64,000 bases of DNA. It comes from Eledone cirrhosa. Taxonomy: Eukaryota. The position numbers were made by a program, and so were the translations under genes. The stretch's first letter is position 1, and each line of letters starts with the position of its first letter. Below, in pieces: positions 583 to 63,312 of this stretch. Location of the stretch: assembly GCA_964016885.1 (NCBI GenBank), contig OZ024741.1, positions 338,396,001 through 338,460,000 of the forward strand. Direction: 5' to 3'. The notes under the pieces are model-generated. The model did not search any database. It was given only the letters and a program-made list of their open reading frames with translations, and had not been told where the DNA came from.

Positions 583-608
583 AAATAGTGAAATAATGAT
601 ATATTTAC

Positions 609-788
609 TTGAAACACAGGCGACGTTGATTTTATAATCACAGGTTAAACTTTCAGGATTGAAATAAAGGCCATCATTACAATTCATCTCACGACGAAAA
701 AATCCGTTGGGTGTTGGTTCACACACAATGTACTTTTCACAACGGTAAGGATGCTTGCAAAAATAGGTATTTTGACAGCTGCAAAACT
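609..788 (-). CDS. Exon 2 (CBM14 domain 1), gene copy A; downstream exons lie outside the window
   Basis: Same splice sites as 44563-44742, with three substitutions. Confidence 0.92.
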
Positions 789-1851
789 CTAAAATGATAA
801 AAAGTAAATAATTTTCATAAACAGATAGATAAATATTGTCTATAATATTAGAAGAACCCCATGCATTGCCCACATTTCAAAATAGCAATCTACATTCTAG
901 GTTCAAATCCAGCCGAGGTTAAGCTTTGACTTTTATCCTTACAGATTCGTAAAAATAAATACCACTAATGCATTGGATTCGATTTTATTCAGTTTCTCCT
1001 CCTCCAAAAATTGTTAGCTTTGTACCTAAGTCAGAAAGAGCATATAGTTAGTAAGAAATTCTGAGGCATTTTTAATCTGATGCCCTAACACAACTCTATC
1101 AATTTGCCACACTAAAGCAAATGTTTATAAGTATCATTAGCTTCAGTTATTACTCTGTAATTACTATCTGTTATTACAGTTATTACTATCTGTTCTAAAA
1201 TTCTGAATTGTTGACTTAGAAGCAGGTCGACATATTTTGTTTAGGTGTAAGGTTGCTTGAATTGGTTTTTGAATATATTAAAGGTATTTATTTTATTCAT
1301 CTTCCAGAGAACTAAATAGCAAAGTTCTGTTACAATCACTGTTTGAGATTGAGGAATGACTGTACAATAGAAATGCTAACCAAACATGTGATGGTTGATC
1401 TTCTACTAGACTTGTGGGTTCATGCTCTCAGTAAAGACTGCAATAGTATTCAACATATTTCATTTTCAGAGTCCAGGATCAGTATGCCATATAAACCAGA
1501 ATTTCTGGGTATATGAACAATCATCAAATTTGAAAAATAGCAATTTGATAAATTAATGGTTTGCATAAGAGAACCCCTGTAGTTTATGTTGATTACTGAC
1601 ACATGGAAGTGATTAAAGATAAAAATGTTCATTTAAATAATTTTTTTTTAAAGATATAATTGCATAAATGTTCAGCATGTATATACAAATGACATACACA
1701 ATTAAATGTATTAGTAACTTTGGAGAAATAACTATTTACAGGGATAAGAAGCCAGGATCCTATGATTGAAAAGCAAACTTCTTATAGCAAAATGATTGAG
1801 ATAGGAAATGCATTGTGTGCATGTGTGTAAATTTTAAAGAGTTACAGACAA

Positions 1852-1933
<82 letters not shown>

Positions 1934-2025
1934 ACACATATATATATATACATATATATATATATACACATATATATATATACATATATATATATATACA
2001 CATATATATATATACATATATATAT

Positions 2026-2062
<37 letters not shown>

Positions 2063-2063
<1 letters not shown>

Positions 2064-5000
2064 ATAGAGCAGGAGAAATCGTAGAAATGCTAGAGCGAAA
2101 GGAAGTTGATGTATGCTGTGTGCAAGAGACTAGATGGAGAGGAGGGTCTGCTAGAGTCCTCGTAGGAAAAAGCCAGTGCTACAAATTTTTCTGGGTGGGA
2201 AATGACGATGGGATGGGTGGTGTAGGTATACTATTAGCTGACAAGTGGGTAGATAAAGTAATCTCAGTGTACAGGGTAAATGCAAGAATCATTAAACTCA
2301 GACTAGTCCTGAATAAGACAATTACCACAATAATATCAGCTTACGCACCCCAATCGGGGCTGCCAGACGAACTTAAGGATAGGTTTTACGAGTCCCTAAT
2401 ACACACTACTGCTCTAACAGACGACAAGGACTTCCTAATCATTGCAGGAGATTTTAACGGACACGTAGGTAAACACTGCGACGGCTTCAATAGAGTACAT
2501 GGAGGCCATGGAGTTGGCACAAGGAATGAGGAAGGATTCAGACTTCTAGAATTCTGCGACGCCAATGACATGTCGATATGTAACACAAACTTTAAAAAAC
2601 CCGACAACCACCTGATCACCTATAGATCAGGGGAGCACTCTAGTCAGTTAGATTTTATCCTCATCAGAGGACGTGACAGATGGACGGTCGTAAACACAAA
2701 AGCCTTCCCTAGTGAGGAATGTACATCCCAACATAGCTTAGTTGTCAGCGACCTCACGGTCAGAACTAGACGAGCCCTGAAACAGAGGCCAACCTGGAGA
2801 AGAAAGATCTGGAAGCTGAAAGTCCCCTCAACCAGTAACAGATTTAAAGATATTTTACTCAACGCCTACGACAGTAAAGAAGAACAGATAGAGACATTTA
2901 ACGTAGAAGAGAACTGGGAGTTCCTAAAAAATAACTTACTAGAGGCGACGGATGAGGTTTGTGGCTGGAGTAAGACCTCAAGCAGGAGGAGAGTGACTTG
3001 GTGGTGGAACAATAAGGTAGATGAAGCAGTCAAGGCCAAGAGACAGTCATGGAAAGAATGGAAGAACGGAGGGAGCAGGGTACATTACATAGAGACCAAG
3101 AGGGAAGCTAGGCGACAAGTATACTTAGCTAGGAGGGAAGCAGAGGATAGAAAATTCAAGCATGTTTTACAACGTGAGGACCAGAAACAGGAGGTATTCA
3201 AGATTGCGAGGCAGTGTGTCAGAGATAGTTGTGATGTCATTGGAGAGAAGTGTATCCGGAATGATAAAGGTGAGCTTGCCCTCACAAGTGCTGAGAAGAA
3301 AGATGCATGGAAGAGTCATTATGATAGATTACTAAATGAGGAGAATGCATGGGAAGAGGAGACCCTACCCCACGTAGACCCTATAGAGGGACCAGCAGTA
3401 CAAGTCAGCGGCAGCGTAGTAAGTAAGGCAATCAGAGATATGAAGATAGGGAAGGCAACCGGTCCATCGGGTATAGCTGCCGAGATGCTGAAGGCATCTG
3501 GGTCTGTAGATCACACTATAACCACACGTATCGTTAACCAGGTAATACTAGAGGGGGCCATACCAAAAGATTGGTGCAGTAGCATCATTGTCAACTGCTA
3601 CAAAGGTAAAGGCGATGCACTAGATAGAGGAAACTATAGAGGTATAAAGTTGATGGACCAGGTCATGAAAGTAACAGAAAGAGTTATAGCACAGCTGATT
3701 AGGGACCGGGTGAATATAGACGAGATGCAATTTGGGTTTGTACCAGGGAAAGGCACCACTGATGCCCTCTTCCTTGTGAGGCAATTACAGGAAAAGTACC
3801 TAGCTAAATGTAAGCCACTCTACTTGGCATTTGTCGACCTTGAGAAAGCCTTTGACAGAGTTCCACGTGCAGTAATCTGGTGGGCTCTTAGAAAACTAGG
3901 AGTAGATGAATGGCTTGTGAAAGCGGTACAAGCCATGTATAGGGGAGCAGTCAGCAAAGTTAGGATTGGCAATGAGTATAGCGAGGAATTTAGCGTACAG
4001 GTTGGGGTCCACCAGGGCTCTGTTCTTAGCCCTCTCCTGTTCATCATAGTCCTGCAGGCAATAACGGAGGAGTTTAAGACCGGATGCCCATGGGAACTCC
4101 TGTATGCTGATGACCTCGCACTCATAGCTGAATCTATGGTAGAACTAGAGAATAAATTCCAAACCTGGAAGCAGGGACTAGAGAGAAAGGGCCTCAAAGT
4201 CAACATGACAAAGACTAAGGTCCTTATAAGTAGACGAGAAAACAGAACCCAGATCCCCTCAGGGAAATGGCCTTGCTCAGTATGTAGGAAAGGTGTAGGT
4301 AGGAACTCCATTCTCTGCCCCAAATGCAAACAATGGGTACACAAGAGATGTAGCGGGATCTCAGGAAGCTTAATTAAGAATGTAGGATTCACATGCAGCA
4401 GCTGTGCTGAAACAGCAAGCAAACAGCCACAGGAAACAAGTACCACCAATCTCTGGGATGGCCCTGTAGAAACAGTAGACAGCTTCTGCTACCTAGGTGA
4501 CCGAATTAGCAACGGAGGTGGGTGCTCAGAAAGTACAATAACTAGGGTAAGAACGGGATGGAAGAAGTTTAGGGAACTACTACCACTGCTAGCTGCAAAA
4601 GGCTTCTCCCTCAGAATGAAAGGCAGACTGTATGATGCATGTATCCGAACAGCGATGTTGCATGGTAGTGAGACCTGGGCGTTGAAGGTGGAAGACTTAC
4701 GTAGATTAGAGAGAAACGAAGCCTGCATGCTCCGATGGATGTGTAACAGTAATATACGTGAACGACAAAGCATAAAGGAATTGAGAGAGAGACTGAGCAT
4801 AAGAGGAATCAAATGCTGCGTGCAGGAGAGGCGGTTACGCTGGTATGGACATGTGATGCGTATGAAGGATGACAGCTGCATAAAAAGGTGCAGAGCACTA
4901 GAAGTTGATGGAAACCGTGGAGTGGGGAGACCCAAGATGACTTGGGATGAGGTGATAAAAGCCGACCTTACCCAACTACACCTCTCAAAGTCAATGACAC

Positions 5001-5368
5001 ACGACCGTGACTTCTGGCGTCACGCAGTAATACAGGGTACCCGACCTCCCATGGGTACATGCTGAAGCATATAAACAATATGCCCCCCCCCCCCCCACCG
5101 CAAGGTGGCCGTGGAGGTGCCACGGCAAAAAAGCACCCAGCCCACACTGTAAAGTGGACGTGTAGGCGCCACGAAAAAGCACCCAGCACTCACTGTAAAT
5201 GAGGTTGGTGTTAGGAAGGGCATCCAGCTGTAGAAATCAAGCCAGATCAGTTCCTGTATGAGCAAGGCATGGTCAGCCGACCAGACACTGCCCACAACAG
5301 GACAACCCGTCTAACCCATGCTAGCGTGGAAGAACGGACGTAAAACGGTGATGATGATGATGATGATG

Positions 5369-5370
<2 letters not shown>
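2063..5370 (+). mobile_element. RTE-clade LINE, nearly full length, slightly 5'-truncated
   Basis: APE endonuclease motifs (VQETRW, AYAPQ, GDFNGH, LDF), RT motifs ([24 protein letters not shown]), RRLRWYGHV, (GAT)n tail; flanked by (TA)n. Confidence 0.95.
2087..5065 (+). CDS. RTE ORF: AP endonuclease + reverse transcriptase with PHD-like zinc finger (992 aa)
   Basis: Uninterrupted ORF with the motifs above. The first endonuclease motif appears to be lost at the 5' junction. Confidence 0.9.
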
Positions 5371-5407
<37 letters not shown>

Positions 5408-5411
5408 TATG

Positions 5412-8072
<2,661 letters not shown>

Positions 8073-12239: not shown

Positions 12240-14760
12240 TATCAAAATGAAAATCCGAAGGCAAGGTAAAATTTCCAATCATTTTAATCACGACACATGT
12301 TTCAATCAGAGAACTTAGAAAAAGCTACTGAAAAACTACACGGGCCAACCTGGATTTAATCAACACGGAGGCCAATAGCGTCATGACTAAACTGGGTATT
12401 GAGGATAAAACCGAACCCTTCCACCCTAGAACTCCGAGGATTTTGTTGAAGCACCACAAATTAAACTTTGAATTATCAAGACCTGTCAGGCTGATAGCCC
12501 TTCGAAGTCGGACATAGGAATCATGAGTAAAAACATCCTTGATAAAATAATGCCCACTCTAGTTATGAGATCGAAGATTAAATTATGGTCAGGAACAGCG
12601 AGGTAATTAACTGGTTTGAGAAGTCGCAGAATAATAATAGCACTAAGTTTATACAGTTCGATATCTCTTAACTACTATTCTTCGATCTCTCCAACTCTTC
12701 TAGGTAGGGCCCTAAATTTTGCTAGCTTACACACCGACCTTACATCTGAAGAAATTAACATTATTCTCCTAGCTAGGAAAACCTTAATTGAGTCCAACGG
12801 TGACTTGTGGACCAGGAAGGATTGGCCGGACAATTTCGACATCACCATGGGATCCACGGACTCGGCCCAGGTGACGGATCTGGTGGGCCTTTACTTCCTC
12901 GACTGTCTCTCAGTGGAAATGCCCACTTGGGAGGCGGCGCTTACCGTGACGACGTTTTATTTACTGTGTCGTTCCGTAATAATAATATGGTAGAGAGGGT
13001 GAGGAAAAAACTAAGCAAATTCTTTAAGAACATAGACCTAAGTATAGTATTTGAAGAGAACTTAAAGATAGTTAATTTTCCAACCCTACCACAAACCCAA
13101 TGAGAATTTAAACTATGTCAACGCTAAATCGAACCACCCTAGAATAGTCACTAACGGTATTACTAAAAGTGTCTCTAGTAGAATTTCAGGACTATCGTCC
13201 AATGAAGATACCTTTAATAGGATCTCGAATTACTATAATAGCGCGGAGCATAGCGAGGGAATCTCATTCAAACGTCCATTAGATAGTAGTAGCAACATTG
13301 CCTGCTATAGCTTAGGCCAAAATAGTGACACTTCTGTTAACAGCAGGCGGGATACGAGGGAGTATCAATATAGACTTCATGTTGTATTGCCTCCTAGTCC
13401 CAATGGAAACAACCACCCAGGTACTAACACGGGGTCAGAGCACCGTAATGCCAGCGGAAACTCTAATTGTAACCTTAATTGTAGAACTGATAAAACGACC
13501 GTTGAACGTAAAATGGAACGAGGGTCGAGTAGAGGGAATAGGGATAAATGTAGTAGGTGCATAGTGGATTTAACCCCGGCTATCGATGGTAATCCAAATG
13601 GCTGCACGGGGGTACACCGCCCCGGACACTTGGGACGATTCCGAAAACAATCGGGACACCCCAGATCCACAGGCAGTTTTCAGTTATAATAGACCGGTAG
13701 CTACTAAGGAGACAGGTACCTCTAATATAGATAGTAAGAACAAGAGGCATCTGACCAGAAAAATCCTGTGGTATAACCCCCTTACTCCACTGGCCTGACC
13801 ACTAGTATAGCTAAGCTTTTCTTTAGGGCCTTAGACAAATGCTTCCCTAGATCACACAGATACTATAAAATATTCAATAGGAATACCATCAAACTGTCCT
13901 ACTCCACAACCAGTAACATAGCTCAGAATATAGCTAAGATGAATTATAGTAGACTTAGGACAGGGGGGGGGATGAGACATGACAGAACTAATGGCAGCTC
14001 TATGGATGAACGGACTCATACACGTGAGGCGAGTCAGGTCACACCAACACCTGAGAACTTACTCATAGAGCAGACAAGAACTGAGACCCGACCCCAAATG
14101 TACCGTGGCTCCTCTGGAACTACTCAGGTCGATAACAGAAAATGTAATTGCAGGAACACCGCCACTTGCCCCATGGCTGGGAAATGCCTCACCAAAAACA
14201 TAGTCTACGACTGCAAGGTCTCCACTCTTGATAGATCCTTCAGGTATGTTGGGGAAACTGCCACTGAATTTAAGGGTAGATGGTATAATCACCGCCATAC
14301 CTTTAATAGATTAGATAAAAAAAATAGCACGGCGCTTTCTGAATTAGTCTGCAAGCTTAAACAACAGATTGCTCAGCCCAGCCTTATAACGGCAGCACGG
14401 GCGTTTGTAATTTGTGTATAGCTGAAACCTTTAATATTATTAGAGGCGGCCCCCTATTAATCAATAGGAGAGCGGATTTTTTCAGCAACTGCCAACATAG
14501 AACCTCGAAAACTTTCCGCAGGATTTTTGGGAAGTAACCTACCACTAACTCCTCCCTCTCTACCTTAGCCATAGAGTTCTCTCAATTAGCGAAAAAACAG
14601 ACAATCACACACTCAGGTAGTTAGACAGCTAAGATCGTTTGCGCACTTACAAACAGTACTCGGCCTGTCTCCACAGAGTTTTCACAGATGAGTGCACTTT
14701 AGAATACCTAGTTAGTAATTAGTTAGATTGATTACACACTCAGAATACCTAGTTAGTAAA
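12240..14760 (+). mobile_element. Decayed Penelope-like retroelement (RT + GIY-YIG)
   Basis: Frameshifted fragments: MGSTDSAQVTDLVGLYFL, YRDD, KILWYNP, CNC...CP..GKC..KNIVY...YVGETATEFKGRWYNH. Confidence 0.88.
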
Positions 14761-15769: not shown

Positions 15770-16172
15770 TTATTTCCTCCTATCTTTATTTATTTCTTTC
15801 TTCTCTCCATACATTTCTCTCTCTCTCCGATATTTCTCCAGGTTTTCTTTCTTTCTATCTTTCTTTCTCTCTCTCCGTCTTTGTTCTTTTCTCTCTCTCC
15901 GTCTTTTTTCGTTTTTCTTTTTCTTTATCTCCGTCTTTTTCTAATTGTGCTTAACACTATGACTTATTAAAACAATATAAACAATTCACTATCCAGACAG
16001 CCTCCAAAAGTAATGGTTGTATTTTAAAAGGGTACGTCAAAGCTATTTGTAAAACTGTTATATATTGTATTTTGTCTGATGAAGGCATACCATAATTTAA
16101 TATGGTATCCCTGAAATATGTATAATGAAATAAATATGGTTTTATAAATATAGTTTCCATTTATTAATATCG

Positions 16173-16280
<108 letters not shown>

Positions 16281-16554
16281 GGAATAGAATGAAACGAAAT
16301 TTCATTTCTCACTCTTAGTACGGCACTTACTTAAATGTAAGTATGTATGTATACGTACATACATATATGTATACAGACGTACAGTAGCATGTATATATAT
16401 ACATACAGGCACACATATATACATGCACGTATCAGTTTACCAAACATTTATTATAATGCTCGGTTTGTTCGTTTGTAAACAAACAAACAGCCTGAATTAA
16501 GCCGTACAGTGTTTAGGCAACCACGTCACCTTTTTGTTCAACACTGACACAGGA

Positions 16555-16597
16555 ACGATGTACTGGTTTCAAGCTTATTAGCTATCGTCAGCACCGT
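16555..16597 (-). ncRNA. Type I hammerhead ribozyme (family 2; CCAG stem III variant; duplicate at 60412-60454)
   Basis: ACGGTG-CTGACGA-T-AGCT-AATA-AGCT-T-GAAA-CCAG-TA-CATCGT. Confidence 0.75.
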
Positions 16598-17297
16598 ATA
16601 CCTTTCTGCCAGATGGTTGAACGTCCGAAAGTATATACTTTCTTATGAAAATTAACGGCTGAGCAGCCTAATTTGCATATCGAGTGAGTTCAGTCGGCCA
16701 GTCGCACCGAAGACGATAAATGGAATAGAATAAAACGAACTTTCATTTCTCACTCTTAGTACGGCACTTACTTAAATGTAAGTATGTATGTATACGTACA
16801 TACATATATGTATACAGACGTACAGTAGCATGTATATATATACATACAGGCACACATATATACATGCACGTATCAGTTTACCGAACATTTATTATAATGC
16901 TCGGTTTGTTCGTTTGTAAACAAACAAACAGCCTGAATTACGGCGTACAGTGTTTAGGCAACCACGTCACCTTTTTGTTCAACACTGAACAAACCGAGCA
17001 TTATAATAAATGTTCGGTAAACTGATACGTGCATGTATATATGTGTGCCTGTATGTATATATATACATGCTACTGTACGTCTGTATACATATATGTATGT
17101 ACGTATACATACTTACATTTAAGTAAGTGCCGTACTAAGAGTGAGAAATGAAATTTCGTTTCATTCTATTCCATTTATCGTTTTCGGTGCGACTGGCCGA
17201 CTGAACTCACTCGATATGCAAATTAGGCTGCTCAGCCGTTAATTTTCATAAGGAAAGTATATACTTTCGGACGTTCAACCATCTGGCAGAAAGGTAT

Positions 17298-17340
17298 ACG
17301 GTGCTGACGATAGCTAATAAGCTTGAAACTAGTACATCGT
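17298..17340 (+). ncRNA. Type I hammerhead ribozyme (family 2; duplicate at 61155-61197)
   Basis: ACGGTG-CTGACGA-T-AGCT-AATA-AGCT-T-GAAA-CTAG-TA-CATCGT. Full core, stem I 6 bp with extension, palindromic stem III, GUA site. Confidence 0.85.
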
Positions 17341-17766
17341 TCCTGTGTCAGTGTTGAACAAAAAGGTGACGTGGTTGCCTAAACACTGTACGGCGTAATT
17401 CAGGCTGTTTGTTTGTTTACAAACAAACAAACCGAGCATTATAATAAATGTTCGGTAAACTGATACGTGCATGTATATATGTGTGCCTGTATGTATATAT
17501 ATACATGCTACTGTACGTCTGTATACATATATGTATGTACGTATACATACATACTTACATATATATATATATATATACATATTATATATATATATATATA
17601 TATATAAATTGGAATAAATGCTCTGAAATAGCGATATATATGTGAATATAGACATAGAATATTCGAAAATATTCTGTATGTTTATAATAAACATTTTGAA
17701 GACCTAATCGCTATAGAATAGAATACGTCACGTATTACAATTAGATTCTCGATAAAAGCAAGGGAA

Positions 17767-17809
17767 GTAATCTACGCGTTTCATTCTTGTTAGAAATCAT
17801 CAGGACTAC
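17767..17809 (-). ncRNA. Type I hammerhead ribozyme (family 1, inverted unit; duplicate at 61624-61666)
   Basis: Exact reverse complement of 18221-18263. Confidence 0.88.
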
Positions 17810-18220
17810 ATATCCAGTGCTTTTATCGAGAATGACACAGCTAGAGACTTATAGAATACTTAGCTGTGTACAGGAACTGGATAAAAGCACTGGATATGTA
17901 GTCCTGATGATTTCTAACAAGAATTTCTAACAAGAATGAAACGCGTAGATTACTTCCCTTGCTTTTATCGAGAATCTAATTGTAATACGTGACGTATTCT
18001 ATTCTATAGCGATTAGGTCTTCAAAATGTTTATTATAAACATACAGAATATTTTCGAATATTCTATGTCTATATTCACATATATATCGCTATTTCAGAGC
18101 ATTTATTCCAATTTCTAATTTCTGCCGGACCGGCAACCGCTCTTTCAAACCAGTTCCTGTACACAGCTAAGTATTCTATAAGTCTCTAGCTGTGTCATTC
18201 TCGATAAAAGCACTGGATAT

Positions 18221-18263
18221 GTAGTCCTGATGATTTCTAACAAGAATGAAACGCGTAGATTAC
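18221..18263 (+). ncRNA. Type I hammerhead ribozyme (family 1)
   Basis: GTAGTC-CTGATGA-T-TTCT-AACA-AGAA-T-GAAA-CGCG-TA-GATTAC. Stem I continues past an internal loop into ATTCTCGATAAAAGCA/TGCTTTTATCGAGAAT. Confidence 0.9.
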
Positions 18264-18385
18264 TTCCCTTGCTTTTATCGAGAATCTAATTGTAATACGT
18301 GACGTATTCTATTCTATAGCGATTAGGTCTTCAAAATGTTTATTATAAACATACAGAATATTTTCGAATATTCTATGTCTATATT

Positions 18386-18544
<159 letters not shown>

Positions 18545-18631: not shown

Positions 18632-18734
18632 TTAAAACAACAGAATGCAAGACAATTTGGTGCATCATCGTTTACCAACCAGAACAACCAGTTCTACTCG
18701 TTGCTAAACAACCTAATATAGATTATATATATAT

Positions 18735-19697
18735 ATATATATATATAATCTATTGATGAACATTACGTTCATCAATACAACCCCTAGAGGTGAATTAGCT
18801 TACAAATTTAGAAGGGCCCGAGATAAACATAAACTCAATATTAAGATAGTAGAAAGACCAGGTACCTCCATAAAAACACTTATTAGCAATACATACCCTT
18901 TTCAAAGACCTCCCTGTATAGATAAGAAATGAATAATCTGTAAACTAAGCCCTCATATTAACTGTAAAACTAGAAATGTAGTATATAGCATAAGATGTAC
19001 TGAAGGACAATGTAAAGATAAGAATATAGTGTACATAGGTGAGACAGCTCGTAGTATAAGAGAACGGTTAAATGAACACTGGCGAGAACTTCAAGATAAA
19101 AAATAACCAACATGCTAAAAAGCATCAACATGCTAAAATAGAACATAAGGGCAAATTAGAGAACATAGAAATGAAAATAGAATCTACACACAGAAAAGAC
19201 GCAATGTTTAGACAAATCACAGAGGCAATAAACATAAATGAACTCCAACCAAATTAAATAGAAAATATGAATGGAATAGCAACATCACAACTTACAATTA
19301 AGGACAAAATGAAAACACACACACACACATAGAACAAACAACCAACCAGTAACATTTAAATAAACAAATAAATAAACAAATAAAAACACACGCAGACACC
19401 CGGATGTAACACATGCGTAAACTAAGCACACAACACACACAAAAACAAGATGGCGTAGGACAGAACAAAGGAGAGGCACAAAACAAAGAAAAAATCCCCA
19501 GTCACTGAAGAGGTCACAGAATGTATGACGAAAGAACTTTGACAATATATGAACAACCGTCCGGTTATGGAACCAACAAACTAACCGGAAATTTATAAAT
19601 TCTTAAATTTATAAATTTAATTTATAATAAATTGGAGTGAAAGCAACTGGTGCGTGTGTTTCTTATTGGCGACATGACCCTCCCAAAGCATAACAAT
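18735..19697 (+). mobile_element. 5'-truncated Penelope-like element (GIY-YIG part + pLTR); partial duplicate at 63500-64000
   Basis: NCKTRNVVYSIRC...C....IVYIGETARSIRER and RQITEAINI motifs, followed by an A/C-rich 3' region with a hammerhead-like motif. Confidence 0.85.
19501..19543 (+). ncRNA. Minimal hammerhead-like motif in Penelope pLTR
   Basis: GTCA-CTGAAGA-G-GTCA-(9 nt)-TGAC-GAAA-GAAC-TT-TGAC. Confidence 0.55.
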
Positions 19698-20318
19698 ATA
19701 TATATATATATATATACAGTGGCGGACTGGACAGGTTGCCAGGTTGCCCAATGACAAAAATAAAAAAAAATTAAGTAAAGCAATTAGTTAACGAATTCCC
19801 CAGGGAATTAATAGAAACCAAAATATACGATAGTGTAAATAGCTGGAATCAATGGTTGTACATTCTACTAAATCTAAAGCTTAGAAAATCTATTCCTGAG
19901 TCCAACCATTCTCGTTGCTGTGGTAATGCGGCTGGACTGCCGATCGCTATATTTGATTTGCTAAGCTGTCTAAACGTATTGTTATTACTCTGGGGTACTA
20001 TTCCCATTCGAGTGCTAAAGCTACATACCGAATTTGCATTCGTTAGCTTGGCCGCAAACAAAGGCTTCGTTAATGCTGTACTAAAATTTGTATATATATA
20101 TATATACTTGAGGGCGGCCGACCGGGGTAGAAGCTGCTAAATGTTCGGTCGCCCTCATGTCTCTGATTTTCAGCCCCATGAATTGTGTCTATTATATTCC
20201 TTTGTTATATTTCGAATACCTGATGATGTCACCGGATTCATACTGAACCCAGTCATTGAAATGATCATAGTATAATAAACCTTTTAAGGAATTACACCAG
20301 TCCAGCCTCCTGTTATTT

Positions 20319-21130: not shown

Positions 21131-22269
21131 TTACCCACTCTACTACCCTAAGTATTGAGTACTTTGGTGTGTTATGGTCCATCTGGTTCCTTACCACAAT
21201 TCCTTCGTTATATATATATAAGAAAGTAAGTTCATAGAATCAATTGATAAAATATATACAGTATTTCTTCTCCCAATCAGCATAATCAACCACATAAAAA
21301 ATCAATTAAACGAGGCTATAAGTTTAAAATGTACCTATGAAGAAACAATAGATAAATAAATGATACCTATTTTATCCGCGATCCACAGCCACAGAAAATT
21401 TACCGAGTATTTCTAATAGCCCGTAGAAATTGACTAGACATATAGTTAACCATACACAATTCGGTACAAAATCAAAGTTAGAAGAAAAAAATGTACATAA
21501 ACATACCAAAATCATGTTTCTACCTCCGAAGGTTTCATTCGCTTTTTGGAAATATCCGATCATGGATAAATCAACGAGTTTCGAAATCATCAGGAAACAA
21601 ACTCAATTGGACAAAGATTTTTCTTAAATGATCCCCGCCAGAAACGAATTCAAAATGGCTAAGAATTGTCACATGGCTAGTAGTCAAGTCAGAAAGCTTG
21701 TGATTGGTGCCTGACGGCGAGTAGGCTGGTTGCTAGAAAGCGCAGCCGAATACTGCCTAAAGTTTTATTCAACCTTACGAGAGTATATAAAATATAGAGG
21801 TTTACATATACATAAACTAGACAGAGCCATAGATATATGTCTAGTTTATGTACACTATGTGGACTATGTATTGAAGAACGGATAAATATTCTAAGGAAAT
21901 TACGCAATAGCGATTGCCTAAATTCAAGGAATGAAATCTTCTCACGTTGTCCACACGTCTGGAAACATCTCTTGCATAACTACAAGCTCTAGATTGAATA
22001 ACAGCAACATTTAATATTCTAATCAACTTATTCCGGACATTCACAGTTATCTCCCTTACACCTTACGCCCGTGGTTTTGTATCGCTTGGGTGAAGTGACC
22101 GTTTCTGCGCATGCGCGTTCATACGGTTGTTTTTCCTGTTCCGTATAACCATTACCAGTCCGAGCTGAAGATCCGCATAAGGTGAAACAATAGTTCTCGG
22201 TATGGTGAACTAACTGTCGTGTTACTAGTTCTACCAAACTTACTTCTTTTTTCAGCAAACAAAGGGAGA

Positions 22270-22317
22270 TAAGCTGACAGATCTCTGTTTCGTACTGTTG
22301 GTACTCCTCAGAGCTTA
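22270..22317 (-). ncRNA. Canonical type I hammerhead ribozyme with GUC site (family 4)
   Basis: TAAGCT-CTGAGGA-GTAC-CAACA-GTAC-GAAA-CAGAGATCTG-TC-AGCTTA. Stem I is extended by CAGCAAACAAAGGGAG/CTCCCTTTGTTTGCTG. Confidence 0.92.
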
Positions 22318-22564
22318 CCACTCCCTTTGTTTGCTGAAAAAAGAAGTAAGTGACATAGTCTTCAAAATGCTTTTAATTAAGCATACAGTGTATTGCAAAA
22401 TACACTATATATACATTCATATATATATATCGCTATTTCAGAGCACCAATTCTAATTTTCAATTTTTGCTGGACCGGCAACAGTTCTGTATAATCAGTTC
22501 CTCATTATTACTGGAATTCTATAAGAATCCAACGTTCATAATTTTCAGCAAACAAAGGGAGTGG

Positions 22565-22603
22565 TAAGCTCTGAGGAGTACGAAACAGATATCTGTCAGC
22601 TTA
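22565..22603 (+). ncRNA. Family 4 hammerhead with 9-nt deletion in stem-loop II
   Basis: TAAGCT-CTGAGGA-GTAC-GAAA-CAGATATCTG-TC-AGCTTA. Confidence 0.6.
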
Positions 22604-22738
22604 TCTCCCTTTGTTTGCTGAAAAAAGAAGTAAGTGACATAGTCACTACTTTAAAACAATAGCGTAAGGTCTTCAAAATGCTTTTAATTAAGCATACAGT
22701 GTATTGTAAAATACACTATATATACATTCATATATATA

Positions 22739-25143
<2,405 letters not shown>

Positions 25144-31590: not shown

Positions 31591-31724
31591 TCATAGGCTT
31601 ATTATAAAAGCCCCAGAATACATTTATGGGGAATTTGCAGAAAGATGTGGAGAGGTTTCAGAACAGAATTTATGAAAAACTCACATATCAACCATTCACA
31701 TGTATATGTATATCATATATATAT

Positions 31725-32462
31725 ATGTATAAGTATGTACACGTACATACATATATGTATACAGACGTACAGTAGTATGTATATATATATACATACATGC
31801 GCACATATATATATGTACGTATGGATTCACCGAACATTTATTATAATGCTCGGTGTGTTTGTAAACAAACATCCCGTATTAAGCCGTAGTGTCCAGCAAC
31901 CATCGTTGCTCATTTGTTCAACACTGACAAAGGAACGCTGTACTAGTTTCGAGCTTATTAGCTATCGTCAGCAACGTATACCTTCCTGCCAGATTGTTGA
32001 ACGTATATACTTACCTTATGCATATTAAAGGCTGAGTAGCCCAATTTGCATATCGAGTGGGTTAATCGACCGGGTGCACCGAAAACGATAAACGGAAAAA
32101 ATGAAACGAAATTTCATTTCCCACTCTTAGTACGGCTGTTACTTAAATATAAGTATGTACACGTACATACATATATGTATACAGACGTACAGTAGTATGT
32201 ATATATACATACACGCACACATATATATATGTACGTATGGCTTAATACGGGATGTTTGTTTACAAACACACCGAGCATTATAATAAATGTTCGGTGAATC
32301 CATACGTACATATATATATGTGTGTGCATGTATGTATATATATATATATACATACTACTGTACGTCTGTATACATATATGTATGTACGTGTACATACTTA
32401 TATTTAAGTAACAGCCGTACTAAGAGTGGGAAATGAAATTTCGTGTCATTTTTTCCGTTTAT
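31725..32462. repeat. Diverged family 2 retrozyme-like array (direct plus inverted)
   Basis: Homologous to 16278-17565, with an inversion junction near 32238. Confidence 0.82.
31935..31977 (-). ncRNA. Type I hammerhead ribozyme (family 2 variant)
   Basis: ACGTTG-CTGACGA-T-AGCT-AATA-AGCT-C-GAAA-CTAG-TA-CAGCGT. Confidence 0.87.
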
Positions 32463-34305
32463 ATATATATGTATATTATACATATTTCGATTTTTGTAGT
32501 GGTCTTTTTCCTTCTCTAGGGGATTTTACCCGACTTTTATGAGCTATTTTACAGCAACTGTCTGTATTCACAGTTATTTTCTGCATCTAAGCTGCCTACG
32601 TCTTATAAATACATGTGTGTATGCGTGTATCCTTCAATAGAAACAACGTAAGTATCCTCTCTCTCACTTACTCCTTCCCACCCAACAACAGCTGAAAGTA
32701 TAAATCACCATGGGAGCAAGGATGGTGGTTTAACGACTTCAGATAACTAGATATAAACGTGGCAGCCATCAGCAAGACCAGAATTTCTTAGTTAGACCCA
32801 TTCACAGCCATCTTCAATGGTTAGAATATGTATTACATTTTGTTGTCAGCCTACATCAGGGAGTGAAGTAGCTGTATTATTTCTGACATGAGCATCAACA
32901 ACGGTGGTGCCTTCAGACAGGAACAAGGTTTTCAGACATCTTTGGGTGTCTAGAAACATTCTGAGGAATGTCCTGCTCTTTAATACTAGAGACTGAAATG
33001 ACATCTTAGACGCGTCGAGATTGTGTGGGGAGGATGAGGGAATAATTGATGGGAGGATGGTGCAATAGTGTCATAAAACTGTTCAGACCTTTCCAAATAT
33101 CTGGCAGGAACTGACTGGGTCTCCTGAAGATGTCATCTAGATTGTATCTAAATAGTCAGTAGACAAGATTAGAGTAGAGTATCCACATTTTCAACTGGTT
33201 GACTACACAGACCACAAATCTTTTAACTGCATGGTTGACCTAGATATAACACAGAAGCAAAAACTCTGCTACTGGGAGCTGAACACATCTGTCCCTGCAG
33301 GTAAAGCCTACAGAAACTGGATTAGTGACTTAGTTAAGTGGCAACTGACAGGGGCTATCTACAACAACTGATAGTTGATTAATTTAAAGAGCAATTAGCA
33401 TAGAATCAATAAGGTTTATTAAAGAAATAGCTTCTGGATTTGCGACCAGTATTTAGCATCTGTAATGGAAAGGCCAATGGAAACATTGTTTACTTGGTCA
33501 GATTAGACAAGTTCCACTTCACTCGTTAAACAAATGAGGTCTGTGTGTGTGTGTAAACAGTAAACAGAAATAGCAAATTAGTAGGGAAATCAAATTAGAT
33601 GTAGGGGAGGCTAGAGAACAATTTAGAGGGAGAAATTCAGAAAGTCATTGCAACTAACATGTTAGTAATAAGAATATCAAAACACAAAGGCTGTGTTCTC
33701 TGAGCTAATGCACTTGCTCTAAGACAGGATGGAATGAAAGCATTCAATAGAACTGAGTCACATAGGATAATATGGCAAGAAAACTATAATAGGTCTTTGA
33801 CCGATTGGTGTAAACACATGCTACTCGATGTCAAGTAGATGTATGTGCCTATTTAGCCACATTTTGCTCTACTGTTCAAGGTGAATGGTGGATGTGGACT
33901 GAAGATAGTTGTGAACTTTAGTGGCTTGAAGTGGATTTTATCAGAAAATGCAAAGTGCTGCAAAAAAGCAAATAACAGCAGCTGAAATACAGATGGTGAT
34001 AAGTAGTTATATGAGAGGCAGATCATCTGGTTTAGATAGTCTGCCCTATGAGTTTTACATATATATTTGCCAGTCTTATTCACTAACGACTTGGCTAATG
34101 TCTTAGATGTGTGTGCTTGAGGTTGGTAGCACTGCTGAGAAAAGGGATGAACAAAGGGGACAATAGTCATCATTTCCAGTTCATAAATGCAGCATTTAAG
34201 ATTTTGGCCAGGTGTACGGCTCAAAATCTTCAATACGTTCAATGTTAGCATCATCATTATTGACTAGTTCAAAAATAAAAAGAGACAAATTTTGCTGAAA
34301 ATTGC

Positions 34306-34521: not shown

Positions 34522-53246
<18,725 letters not shown>

Positions 53247-56142: not shown

Positions 56143-58662
56143 TATCAAAATGAAAATCCGAAGGCAAGGTAAAATTTCCAATCATTTTAATCACGACACA
56201 TGTTTCAATCAGAGAACTTAGAAAAAGCTACTGAAAAACTACACGGGCCAACCTGGATTTAATCAACACGGAGGCCAATAGCGTCATGACTAAACTGGGT
56301 ATTGAGGATAAAACCGAACCCTTCCACCCTAGAACTCCGAGGATTTTGTTGAAGCACCACAAATTAAACTTTGAATTATCAAGACCTGTCAGGCTGATAG
56401 CCCTTCGAAGTCGGACATAGGAATCATGAGTAAAAACATCCTTGATAAAATAATGCCCACTCTAGTTATGAGATCGAAGATTAAATTATGGTCAGGAACA
56501 GCGAGGTAATTAACTGGTTTGAGAAGTCGCAGAATAATAATAGCACTAAGTTTATACAGTTCGATATCTCTTAACTACTATTCTTCGATCTCTCCAACTC
56601 TTCTAGGTAGGGCCCTAAATTTTGCTAGCTTACACACCGACCTTACATCTGAAGAAATTAACATTATTCTCCTAGCTAGGAAAACCTTAATTGAGTCCAA
56701 CGGTGACTTGTGGACCAGGAAGGATTGGCCGGACAATTTCGACATCACCATGGGATCCACGGACTCGGCCCAGGTGACGGATCTGGTGGGCCTTTACTTC
56801 CTCGACTGTCTCTCAGTGGAAATGCCCACTTGGGAGGCGGCGCTTACCGTGACGACGTTTTATTTACTGTGTCGTTCCGTAATAATAATATGGTAGAGAG
56901 GGTGAGGAAAAAACTAAGCAAATTCTTTAAGAACATAGACCTAAGTATAGTATTTGAAGAGAACTTAAAGATAGTTAATTTTCCAACCCTACCACAAACC
57001 CAATGAGAATTTAAACTATGTCAACGCTAAATCGAACCACCCTAGAATAGTCACTAACGGTATTACTAAAAGTGTCTCTAGTAGAATTTCAGGACTATCG
57101 TCCAATGAAGATACCTTTAATAGGATCTCGAATTACTATAATAGCGCGGAGCATAGCGAGGGAATCTCATTCAAACGTCCATTAGATAGTAGTAGCAACA
57201 TTGCCTGCTATAGCTTAGGCCAAAATAGTGACACTTCTGTTAACAGCAGGCGGGATACGAGGGAGTATCAATATAGACTTCATGTTGTATTGCCTCCTAG
57301 TCCCAATGGAAACAACCACCCAGGTACTAACACGGGGTCAGAGCACCGTAATGCCAGCGGAAACTCTAATTGTAACCTTAATTGTAGAACTGATAAAACG
57401 ACCGTTGAACGTAAAATGGAACGAGGGTCGAGTAGAGGGAATAGGGATAAATGTAGCAGGTGCATAGTGGATTTAACCCCGGCTATCGATGGTAATCCAA
57501 ATGGCTGCACGGGGGTACACCGCCCCGGACACTTGGGACGATTCCGAAAACAATCGGGACACCCCAGATCCACAGGCAGTTTTCAGTTATAATAGACCGG
57601 TAGCTACTAAGGAGACAGGTACCTCTAATATAGATAGTAAGAACAAGAGGCATCTGACCAGAAAAATCCTGTGGTATAACCCCCTTACTCCACTGGCCTG
57701 ACCACTAGTATAGCTAAGCTTTTCTTTAGGGCCTTAGACAAATGCTTCCCTAGATCACACAGATACTATAAAATATTCAATAGGAATACCATCAAACTGT
57801 CCTACTCCACAACCAGTAACATAGCTCAGAATATAGCTAAGATGAATTATAGTAGACTTAGGACAGGGGGGGGATGAGACATGACAGAACTAATGGCAGC
57901 TCTATGGATGAACGGACTCATACACGTGAGGCGAGTCAGGTCACACCAACACCTGAGAACTTACTCATAGAGCAGACAAGAACTGAGACCCGACCCCAAA
58001 TGTACCGTGGCTCCTCTGGAACTACTCAGGTCGATAACAGAAAATGTAATTGCAGGAACACCGCCACTTGCCCCATGGCTGGGAAATGCCTCACCAAAAA
58101 CATAGTCTACGACTGCAAGGTCTCCACTCTTGATAGATCCTTCAGGTATGTTGGGGAAACTGCCACTGAATTTAAGGGTAGATGGTATAATCACCGCCAT
58201 ACCTTTAATAGATTAGATAAAAAAAATAGCACGGCGCTTTCTGAATTAGTCTGCAAGCTTAAACAACAGATTGCTCAGCCCAGCCTTATAACGGCAGCAC
58301 GGGCGTTTGTAATTTGTGTATAGCTGAAACCTTTAATATTATTAGAGGCGGCCCCCTATTAATCAATAGGAGAGCGGATTTTTTCAGCAACTGCCAACAT
58401 AGAACCTCGAAAACTTTCCGCAGGATTTTTGGGAAGTAACCTACCACTAACTCCTCCCTCTCTACCTTAGCCATAGAGTTCTCTCAATTAGCGAAAAAAC
58501 AGACAATCACACACTCAGGTAGTTAGACAGCTAAGATCGTTTGCGCACTTACAAACAGTACTCGGCCTGTCTCCACAGAGTTTTCACAGATGAGTGCACT
58601 TTAGAATACCTAGTTAGTAATTAGTTAGATTGATTACACACTCAGAATACCTAGTTAGTAAA
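56143..58662 (+). mobile_element. Decayed Penelope-like element, duplicate of 12240-14760
   Basis: Same RT and GIY-YIG fragments. Confidence 0.88.
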
Positions 58663-59661: not shown

Positions 59662-60064
59662 TTATTTCCTCCTATCTTTATTTATTTCTTTCTTCTCTCC
59701 ATACATTTCTCTCTCTCTCCGATATTTCTCCAGGTTTTCTTTCTTTCTATCTTTCTTTCTCTCTCTCCGTCTTTGTTCTTTTCTCTCTCTCCGTCTTTTT
59801 TCGTTTTTCTTTTTCTTTATCTCCGTCTTTTTCTAATTGTGCTTAACACTATGACTTATTAAAACAATATAAACAATTCACTATCCAGACAGCCTCCAAA
59901 AGTAATGGTTGTATTTTAAAAGGGTACGTCAAAGCTATTTGTAAAACTGTTATATATTGTATTTTGTCTGATGAAGGCATACCATAATTTAATATGGTAT
60001 CCCTGAAATATGTATAATGAAATAAATATGGTTTTATAAATATAGTTTCCATTTATTAATATCG

Positions 60065-60134
<70 letters not shown>

Positions 60135-60137
<3 letters not shown>

Positions 60138-61422
60138 GGAATAGAATGAAACGAAATTTCATTTCTCACTCTTAGTACGGCACTTACTTAAATGTAAGTA
60201 TGTATGTATACGTACATACATATATGTATACAGACGTACAGTAGCATGTATATATATACATACAGGCACACATATATACATGCACGTATCAGTTTACCAA
60301 ACATTTATTATAATGCTCGGTTTGTTCGTTTGTAAACAAACAAACAGCCTGAATTAAGCCGTACAGTGTTTAGGCAACCACGTCACCTTTTTGTTCAACA
60401 CTGACACAGGAACGATGTACTGGTTTCAAGCTTATTAGCTATCGTCAGCACCGTATACCTTTCTGCCAGATGGTTGAACGTCCGAAAGTATATACTTTCT
60501 TATGAAAATTAACGGCTGAGCAGCCTAATTTGCATATCGAGTGAGTTCAGTCGGCCAGTCGCACCGAAGACGATAAATGGAATAGAATAAAACGAACTTT
60601 CATTTCTCACTCTTAGTACGGCACTTACTTAAATGTAAGTATGTATGTATACGTACATACATATATGTATACAGACGTACAGTAGCATGTATATATATAC
60701 ATACAGGCACACATATATACATGCACGTATCAGTTTACCGAACATTTATTATAATGCTCGGTTTGTTCGTTTGTAAACAAACAAACAGCCTGAATTACGG
60801 CGTACAGTGTTTAGGCAACCACGTCACCTTTTTGTTCAACACTGAACAAACCGAGCATTATAATAAATGTTCGGTAAACTGATACGTGCATGTATATATG
60901 TGTGCCTGTATGTATATATATACATGCTACTGTACGTCTGTATACATATATGTATGTACGTATACATACTTACATTTAAGTAAGTGCCGTACTAAGAGTG
61001 AGAAATGAAATTTCGTTTCATTCTATTCCATTTATCGTTTTCGGTGCGACTGGCCGACTGAACTCACTCGATATGCAAATTAGGCTGCTCAGCCATTAAT
61101 TTTCATAAGGAAAGTATATACTTTCGGACGTTCAACCATCTGGCAGAAAGGTATACGGTGCTGACGATAGCTAATAAGCTTGAAACTAGTACATCGTTCC
61201 TGTGTCAGTGTTGAACAAAAAGGTGACGTGGTTGCCTAAACACTGTACGGCGTAATTCAGGCTGTTTGTTTGTTTACAAACAAACAAACCGAGCATTATA
61301 ATAAATGTTCGGTAAACTGATACGTGCATGTATATATGTGTGCCTGTATGTATATATATACATGCTACTGTACGTCTGTATACATATATGTATGTACGTA
61401 TACATACATACTTACATATATA
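60135..61422. repeat. Family 2 retrozyme-like array, duplicate of 16278-17565
   Basis: Same direct plus inverted structure. Confidence 0.85.
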
Positions 61423-61462
61423 TATATATATATACATATTATATATATATATATATATATAT

Positions 61463-63312
<1,850 letters not shown>

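Follow-up and report, generated by a model that had tools for sequence, protein, structure and literature searches.

Results

Features of the locus

The window, a stretch of 64,000 nt from Eledone cirrhosa, carries on its minus strand a canonical type I hammerhead (22351-22238) whose predicted cut lies between 22276 and 22275. It forms the inverted 5' (left) arm of an insertion at 22238-22739 that belongs to a high-copy mobile repeat, an arrangement that the initial annotation had missed. The features needed for what follows are:

22238-22351, minus strand: type I hammerhead with a 31-bp outer helix; this is the left, inverted arm, which has lost its distal part
22276-22311, minus strand: catalytic core from C3 to C17, with stem II (GUAC-CAACA-GUAC) and a near-palindromic stem III
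22269-22320, minus strand: stem Ia (22317-22312 with 22275-22270), UGG bulge (22320-22318) and U1.7 (22269)
22321-22351, unstranded: inversion junction, located within the self-complementary outer helix of stem I; the left arm starts at unit position 254 and the right arm at about 8
22321-22739, plus strand: sense (right) arm, a whole unit followed by 142 nt, with the unit's (TA)n box at its end
22420-22460, plus strand: internal (TA)n box and the following segment of about 26-30 nt, found as a one-ended tail in most insertions
22542-22624, plus strand: second hammerhead copy, with a 20-bp outer helix and a perfectly palindromic stem III
21858-22237, plus strand: neighbouring unrelated repeat, not part of the element, cut at the end point of the left arm
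22740-23723, unstranded: start of a separate, multi-copy element, likely a DNA transposon, that inserted at TA and bounds the insertion on the right
17583-18447, with further copies at 61440-63234, unstranded: sister 310-nt hammerhead repeat in an inverted-plus-tandem layout, 68-77% identical outside the core
18717-19700, plus strand: 3' part of a GIY-YIG Penelope-like element (PLE) carrying a minimal hammerhead at 19505; a candidate for the helper type
44740-44546, near 43,200, near 40,000 (last recognisable upstream exon near 39,900) and 592-786, minus strand: chitin-binding (CBM_14) exons

The same inversion junction as at 22321-22351 was also found in loci L005, L008, L010 and L135. Since the junction adds 11 bp, the outer helix of stem I measures 31 bp in the window copy and not the 20 bp of ordinary family copies; a helix of 16 bp had been claimed. 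The sense arm has lost about 25 nt near 22358. The left arm stops 38 nt past the cut site, where the neighbouring repeat is also cut, and this shared breakpoint suggests a later deletion. With 93% identity between the sense arm and its closest non-duplicate relative, and a median of 89% over 112 matches, the window copy is an aged one.

A 44-kb segmental duplication has further multiplied the window copy: four copies of the locus, 99.3-100% identical and spaced about 44 kb apart, lie at G000:C2 338,330,000-338,463,500. The minus-strand core is intact in all four duplicates. The plus-strand core at 22571 is damaged, its stem II lacking the 9 nt between the GUAC repeats in three of the four. We considered whether this copy was a separate, minimal natural variant and rejected the idea, since the duplicated locus L004 keeps the full stem II.

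The element to the right begins in the TA box at 22740 and reaches to about 25,150. Its minus strand has broken frames that resemble transposase genes (23019-24200), an inverted repeat occupies 24491-25015, and no Pfam family reached significance. Elsewhere, at L008:2015-2378, a third and more distant relative (about 70% identical, its palindromic stem III shorter) lies on either side of the insertion, which suggests nested insertion into the TA box of the relative.

The hammerhead motif

Judged by sequence, predicted fold and covariation, the motif is a real, well-formed hammerhead RNA. The conserved core is complete, with C3-A9 reading CUGAGGA at 22311-22305, G12-A14 at 22291-22289, the A15.1-U16.1 pair and an NUH triplet, here GUC, enclosed by three closing stems. 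Stem II consists of 4 bp (GUAC/GUAC, 22304-22301 with 22295-22292), closes on G10.1-C11.1 and carries the loop CAACA. Stem Ia has 6 bp, and the UGG bulge faces U1.7. Together with a loop II ending in A, these elements provide the sequence geometry expected for a contact between stem I and loop II. For the core nucleotides, stem II, its loop and the bulge, the initial annotation was borne out. Stem III (ACAG/CUGU with loop AGAU, 22288-22277) is nearly palindromic, with 4 bp and 4 nt. It had been described as stable; alone, however, it is predicted at only −1.8 kcal/mol and forms with a probability of 0.28.

An Infernal score had been proposed as a check. No Rfam hammerhead family reached the gathering cut-off over the whole window, nor was there one among the 13 matches at E ≤ 5 in 21500-23500. 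The sole Rfam matches were to generic miRNA-hairpin models, which we dismissed as matches to a long hairpin. A family model built here from 25 family copies, close relatives of the motif among them, gave 116 bits. This model also picked up the plus-strand copy (22521-22627) and seven copies of the sister repeat, and it matched weakly near 31,950. This weak match (31912-32019, 23.6 bits) falls into a 441-nt repeat family with a similar tandem-plus-inverted layout, present at 16278-17563, 31704-32485 and 60132-61420. Compared with shuffled sequences, 22235-22355 folded with z = −10.1, a value that mostly reflects the outer helix, while the 45-nt core alone gave z = −1.1.

A family of about 2,000 copies

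The motif is one of about 2,000 copies of a repeat of about 320 nt and not a stand-alone ribozyme. Its unit is non-coding, with 314-346 nt between successive cleavage sites at three independent loci. In the 3.0 Gb of genome searched, the first search for the repeat returned 2,117 candidates, and the tail segment had 1,937 exact matches. The core pattern with C3-G8 matched exactly 348 times and the pattern with U3-A8 1,645 times, with 0 matches for the reversed control in each case. Sequence common to the first 30 loci was mostly limited to about 0.3-1.3 kb.

We surveyed 147 hammerhead-like copies (103 non-redundant loci), 134 of which were parsed. The core pair 3-8 was C3-G8 in 120 parsed copies and U3-A8 in 8, and the pair 10.1-11.1 was A-U in 93 and G-C in 35. 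Loop II was CAACA, ending in A, in 122/134. U1.7 was present in 112/120 and the GUC triplet in 114/120. The bulge usually read UGC (82/134 copies); UGG, which allows a G-U pair with U1.7, occurred in 14/134. Copies with A10.1-U11.1 make up the commonest young subfamily. In the larger subfamily, that with U3-A8 (L164-L188), loop II measures 6 nt, and 7 of 22 parsed copies have a perfectly palindromic stem III. The U3-A8 pair is described as a natural variant (PMC3088659; PMC4209133) and is known from Cercyon PLEs (PMC4209133).

Compensatory changes were found family-wide in stems I, II and III and in the core pair C3-G8/U3-A8; they also include G10.1-C11.1/A-U, the pair 10.2-11.2, at which the U3-A8 subfamily covaries too, and G-C/A-U in outer stem I. 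In an alignment of 25 rows, hand-picked from 73 so as to span the subfamilies, 94.9% of cells were paired and 11 of 36 pairs changed on both sides, a count that is inflated by relatedness and that 0 of 500 shuffles reached. The two-sided changes represent few events, inherited by subfamilies. This result, the fold z of −10.1 and the 348 against 0 core matches argue that the motif is not due to chance. One natural unit had a GC content of 33%, was predicted to be 60% paired and gave a circular-fold z of −6.4 against 60 shuffles.

Predicted folding as monomer and as dimer

The folding results are nearest-neighbour predictions, and tertiary contacts, Mg2+ and concentration lie outside the model. 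For a single molecule, the full hammerhead fold was predicted with a probability of 0.009 and lay 1.6 kcal/mol above a misfold. In this monomer minimum, G5 pairs with stem III (probability 0.65); the same off-pairing was predicted in three subfamilies with median probabilities of 0.65-0.98. The picture changed for two molecules. The stem III of the window copy gained −12.2 kcal/mol as an intermolecular duplex, compared with the −1.8 kcal/mol of the hairpin, and the predicted two-molecule minimum was a double hammerhead (−58.8 vs 2 × −25.6 kcal/mol). A double hammerhead was the predicted minimum in 15 of 18 G-C copies and 9 of 10 U3-A8 copies. The copies with A10.1-U11.1 count against a dimer step, as the strict double hammerhead was their predicted two-molecule minimum in just 3 of 60; stem III was intermolecular in 41/60, and opening the core was predicted to cost a median of 1.4 kcal/mol.

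Stem III is palindromic or near-palindromic across the family and the sister repeats, the latter having a minimal palindromic stem III and, at 10.1-11.1, U-U in the sister copy at 17583-18447 and 61440-63234 and A-U in L209. According to PMC4209133 and PMC3088659, a palindromic stem III is a known sign of type I hammerheads capable of dimerizing. Dimer-dependent animal hammerheads typically have a stem III of 1-2 bp (PMC4209133); that of the family (4 bp + 4 nt) is longer than in these obligate dimers, and monomeric cutting is therefore possible. The isolated motif may also cut as a monomer because tertiary contacts and Mg2+ lie outside the folding model. Overall, the prediction for the family hammerhead is better cutting in pairs than as a single motif, and for efficient monomeric cutting of an isolated construct we see slightly less than an even chance.

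At the locus itself, RNA read from the minus strand contains the antisense of the plus-strand copy before it reaches the motif. The whole region was predicted to form one long duplex at −230.7 kcal/mol, compared with −176.2 kcal/mol when the hammerhead was enforced, a gap of 54.5 kcal/mol. For minus-strand RNA starting at or above about 22640, the predicted equilibrium probability of stems I-III was 0.0; their pairs recovered in RNA starting at 22540 or below. In its natural context the active fold is thus predicted not to dominate in a single molecule. Some cutting could occur through kinetic trapping during transcription, and efficient monomeric cutting at the window locus is doubtful. The initial annotation had proposed the motif as the best candidate for an efficient monomeric ribozyme, which these predictions of a misfolded monomer, a favoured dimer and a locus RNA that buries the motif do not support.

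The insertion footprint and Penelope-like elements

For the architecture of the insertions we used 79 loci chosen by the core pattern alone. At 50 of these the repeat forms an inverted pair with the arms pointing outward. At 26 of the 50, one arm ends in the TA box (position about 142) and the other adds a further 26-30 nt; two tails were seen at none. Both insertion ends mostly run into host TA. The 5' ends are variable, and the 3' ends are fixed at two positions. The arrays are short, with two or more cores in only 5/132 arms, which counts against a retrozyme, as many retrozymes form long tandems.

PLE insertions are described as showing partial tandems, an inverted 5'-truncated copy, a tail at one end and targeting of (TA)n (PMC8557442). 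The repeat shares with them the inverted 5'-truncated arm, the one-sided tail and the microsatellite target. The same asymmetry was found in a PLE resident in this genome. The family of the PLE at 18717-19700, high-copy with 25,157 first-look candidates and ending in TA, was followed at 21 loci, 6 of them two-ended, and five of these six combined a TA end with a tail end. Its tail also begins with ATATCG; at over 50 nt it is longer than that of the repeat, which counts against the comparison. From its C-terminal endonuclease and an upstream CX4CxxC motif we infer that this PLE is of the Neptune/Nematis type.

Pfam gave no score to the GIY-YIG fragments, and we take them to be such from the motif in their translation. 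Two PLE families were compared with the unit at 46 loci, over some 3.2 kb around the endonuclease in each case. No shared sequence was found, which counts against mobilisation by PLEs; the sole overlaps were TA runs and a sister repeat inserted in L209. PLE protein fragments lie near 15 of 120 repeat loci. The four inspected were separated from the repeat by TA runs or other DNA and look like independent insertions.

Discussion

A non-LTR retrozyme by its sequence

By its sequence features the family falls among the known metazoan non-LTR retrozymes. It has a non-coding unit within 150-450 nt, a GC content below 50%, one type I hammerhead per unit and a head-to-tail arrangement, together with many dispersed copies, no LTR and no encoded protein; the circular monomer is predicted to be highly self-paired, as calculated for one natural unit. 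Metazoan retrozymes are described as carrying a canonical type I hammerhead in low-GC, non-coding head-to-tail units of 170-400 nt (Cervera and de la Pena 2020, PMC7229834), those of mussels measuring 350-390 bp (PMC7229834). The type I hammerhead, the self-paired low-GC unit and the copy number in the thousands correspond to that description. Unlike in that description, most insertions of the family contain one to two units, an inverted arm is frequent, and the tail is one-sided. The stem III of the family is longer (4 bp and a tetraloop), and its larger subfamily has a U3-A8 core. The main text of PMC7229834 does not mention octopus or cephalopods, and literature searches turned up no paper on hammerhead retrozymes from these animals.

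The closest likeness for the hammerhead itself is to the extended type I hammerhead of Schistosoma mansoni, with its 6-bp stem Ia, unpaired U1.7, 4-bp stem II and loop II ending in A; the contact between U1.7 and the terminal A of the loop is described in PMC11875169. The family differs from it by a 5-nt loop II (6 nt in the U3-A8 subfamily), a 3x1 bulge, a 20-bp outer helix and the missing Rfam match. With PLE hammerheads (Cervera and de la Pena 2014, PMC4209133) it shares a palindromic helix III for dimeric cutting and the U3-A8 variant, and with PLE insertions (Craig et al. 2021, PMC8557442) the partial tandem, the inverted 5'-truncated copy, the tail at one end and the (TA)n targets. It differs from PLEs in having no ORF, a canonical instead of a minimal hammerhead and a tail of 26-30 nt instead of 30-40 bp.

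Mobilisation of non-LTR retrozymes by PLEs has been proposed by Li, Clavereau and Pollet (2026, bioRxiv 10.64898/2026.07.22.740005), who report co-occurrence with PLEs and many solo or monomer copies. As presented in that preprint, the evidence consists of co-occurrence and homology to pseudo-LTRs (pLTRs), mainly in vertebrates. For the family described here, no pLTR homology was found at the 46 loci of two PLE families, but its footprint matches that of the resident PLE.

How the copies may have arisen

Observed directly were the motif with its covariation, the length and copy number of the unit, the outward arms, the asymmetry between TA end and tail end, and the same asymmetry in the resident PLE. 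Taken together, they make it likely that the motif is the hammerhead of a non-LTR retrozyme that PLE enzymes, acting in trans, copied into TA microsatellites, and that the window copy represents the inverted 5' arm of a single aged insertion. Multimeric source transcripts would be cut at GUC, best as a strand-swapped double hammerhead formed through the palindromic stem III, and the monomer would rest in the off-fold between G5 and stem III. Linear or circular unit RNAs would then be bound by the RT/GIY-YIG protein of a PLE, which would nick (TA)n and prime cDNA at the unit's own TA box. With both ends of the break primed, two 5'-truncated cDNAs would join head to head, in the window copy presumably via the complementarity of stem I; later deletions and insertions would have trimmed it.

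The initial annotation had placed the ribozyme on the strand of the neighbouring gene. This is correct for the motif and the CBM_14 exons, which are both on the minus strand, but carries little weight, as the second, damaged core at 22571 is on the plus strand. One could nevertheless suppose that the window copy is an efficient monomeric ribozyme that cuts the minus-strand transcript of the chitin-binding gene and affects that gene. Its intact core, G10.1-C11.1 pair, 4-bp stem III and 31-bp clamp would suit this role, tertiary contacts could outweigh an off-fold that is just 1.6 kcal/mol lower, and canonical hammerheads of coral retrozymes are reported to cut as single motifs at about 0.8 per min (PMC7229834). 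The core has also survived in all four duplicates, three of which have a damaged plus-strand core; these duplicates, however, are too young at 99.3-100% identity to reveal selection. In read-through RNA from 22640 or above, the pairs of stems I, II and III are predicted to be absent, the last recognisable upstream exon lies as far off as 39,900, the UGG bulge can pair with U1.7, and only one of nine Xenopus retrozymes tested was reported to cut (10.64898/2026.07.22.740005). We consider this explanation quite improbable. A link to the gene is not supported, and in its locus the ribozyme is most probably silent or without benefit to the host.

Two other explanations concern the spread of the family. 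The unit might be the pseudo-LTR of an autonomous PLE, with the copies as 5'-truncated insertions that keep the terminal repeat alone. The insertion footprint is identical to that of PLEs, whose insertions are described as heavily 5'-truncated (PMC8557442), and Xenopus retrozymes are said in the preprint to resemble pLTRs (10.64898/2026.07.22.740005). Upstream of the core, however, long arms continue head to tail into the 3' part of the unit itself, little flanking sequence is shared outside the unit, and the PLE fragments at 15/120 loci, where inspected (four cases), are set apart from it. In addition, the pLTR hammerheads of animal PLEs are usually minimal (PMC4209133), while that of the unit is canonical. 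We therefore regard a pseudo-LTR as very improbable. Still further down we place a spread at the DNA level, foldback- or MITE-like or by recombination between TA runs, which would leave the hammerhead as an inherited relic; to us it is hardly credible. Many insertions do look like foldback palindromes, and the window copy did multiply by segmental duplication, but variable 5' ends combined with 3' ends fixed at two positions, a PLE-like one-sided tail, and compensatory changes that keep the RNA structure across subfamilies, including the tertiary 3-8 pair, speak against it.

A possible trace of cleavage in the 5' ends

The 5' ends of the arms may retain a trace of a template cut in vivo. Of the arms still at risk, 7/14 stop within unit positions 1-20, compared with 75/700 in earlier bins, after removal of the 25/132 arms without the family 3' end. 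The stop rate rises with arm length, the five preceding bins amounting to 25/132 (hand-summed), and in the raw histogram of 5' ends a peak at 161-180 is as high (17 vs 16 of 132). The arm ends lie 5-18 nt after the cut site and not at it; 6 of the 18 arms that lack a complete core end at positions 8-18. A block of the reverse transcriptase by the stem I helix at that place could be an alternative cause of the pile-up. As a sign of cleavage in vivo, the enrichment just past the cut site is suggestive only.

One may go further and read the genomic copies as a fossil record of the retrozyme cycle. In this joint reading, the dimer RNA formed via the palindromic stem III would be the substrate of transposition, each RNA would prime one side of a PLE-cut TA run and so give rise to outward twin arms, 5' ends would pile up past GUC because the template was cut in vivo, and one lineage would have switched between U3-A8 and C3-G8 while mobile. 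We judge the combination unlikely. If it were true, the switch would offer a natural series on monomer versus dimer control.

On its own the window copy matters little, being one aged insertion of a known class. The family may serve as a test set for the question of which enzyme moves animal retrozymes, as a link to PLEs has so far been argued from co-occurrence and homology, and the footprint here matches that of a resident PLE. It may equally serve to ask how a circular RNA avoids cutting itself, given an off-fold that is predicted in three subfamilies and relieved in the dimer. It also holds a warning: a hammerhead of textbook appearance in a stretch of genome can turn out to be one inverted arm, masked by the copy beside it.

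Other repeats and elements in the window

The tandem number of the sister repeat differs between near-identical segmental copies, one of which has two plus-strand cores and the other four. Hammerhead-like cores with a long stem II adjoin a TA run on the plus strand at 16076-16116 and 59968-60008. A broken second GIY-YIG Penelope-like family (13072-14520 and 56975-58400) had 45,315 first-look candidates, and at L033:2030-3027 a long 27-nt satellite starts inside a PLE endonuclease fragment. Open frames of LINEs lie at 1838-5065, 5344-7437, 45754-49023 and 49302-51395, one of which looks complete. From the endonuclease, reverse transcriptase and inserted Cys-rich finger in their translations, we take them to be RTE-like.
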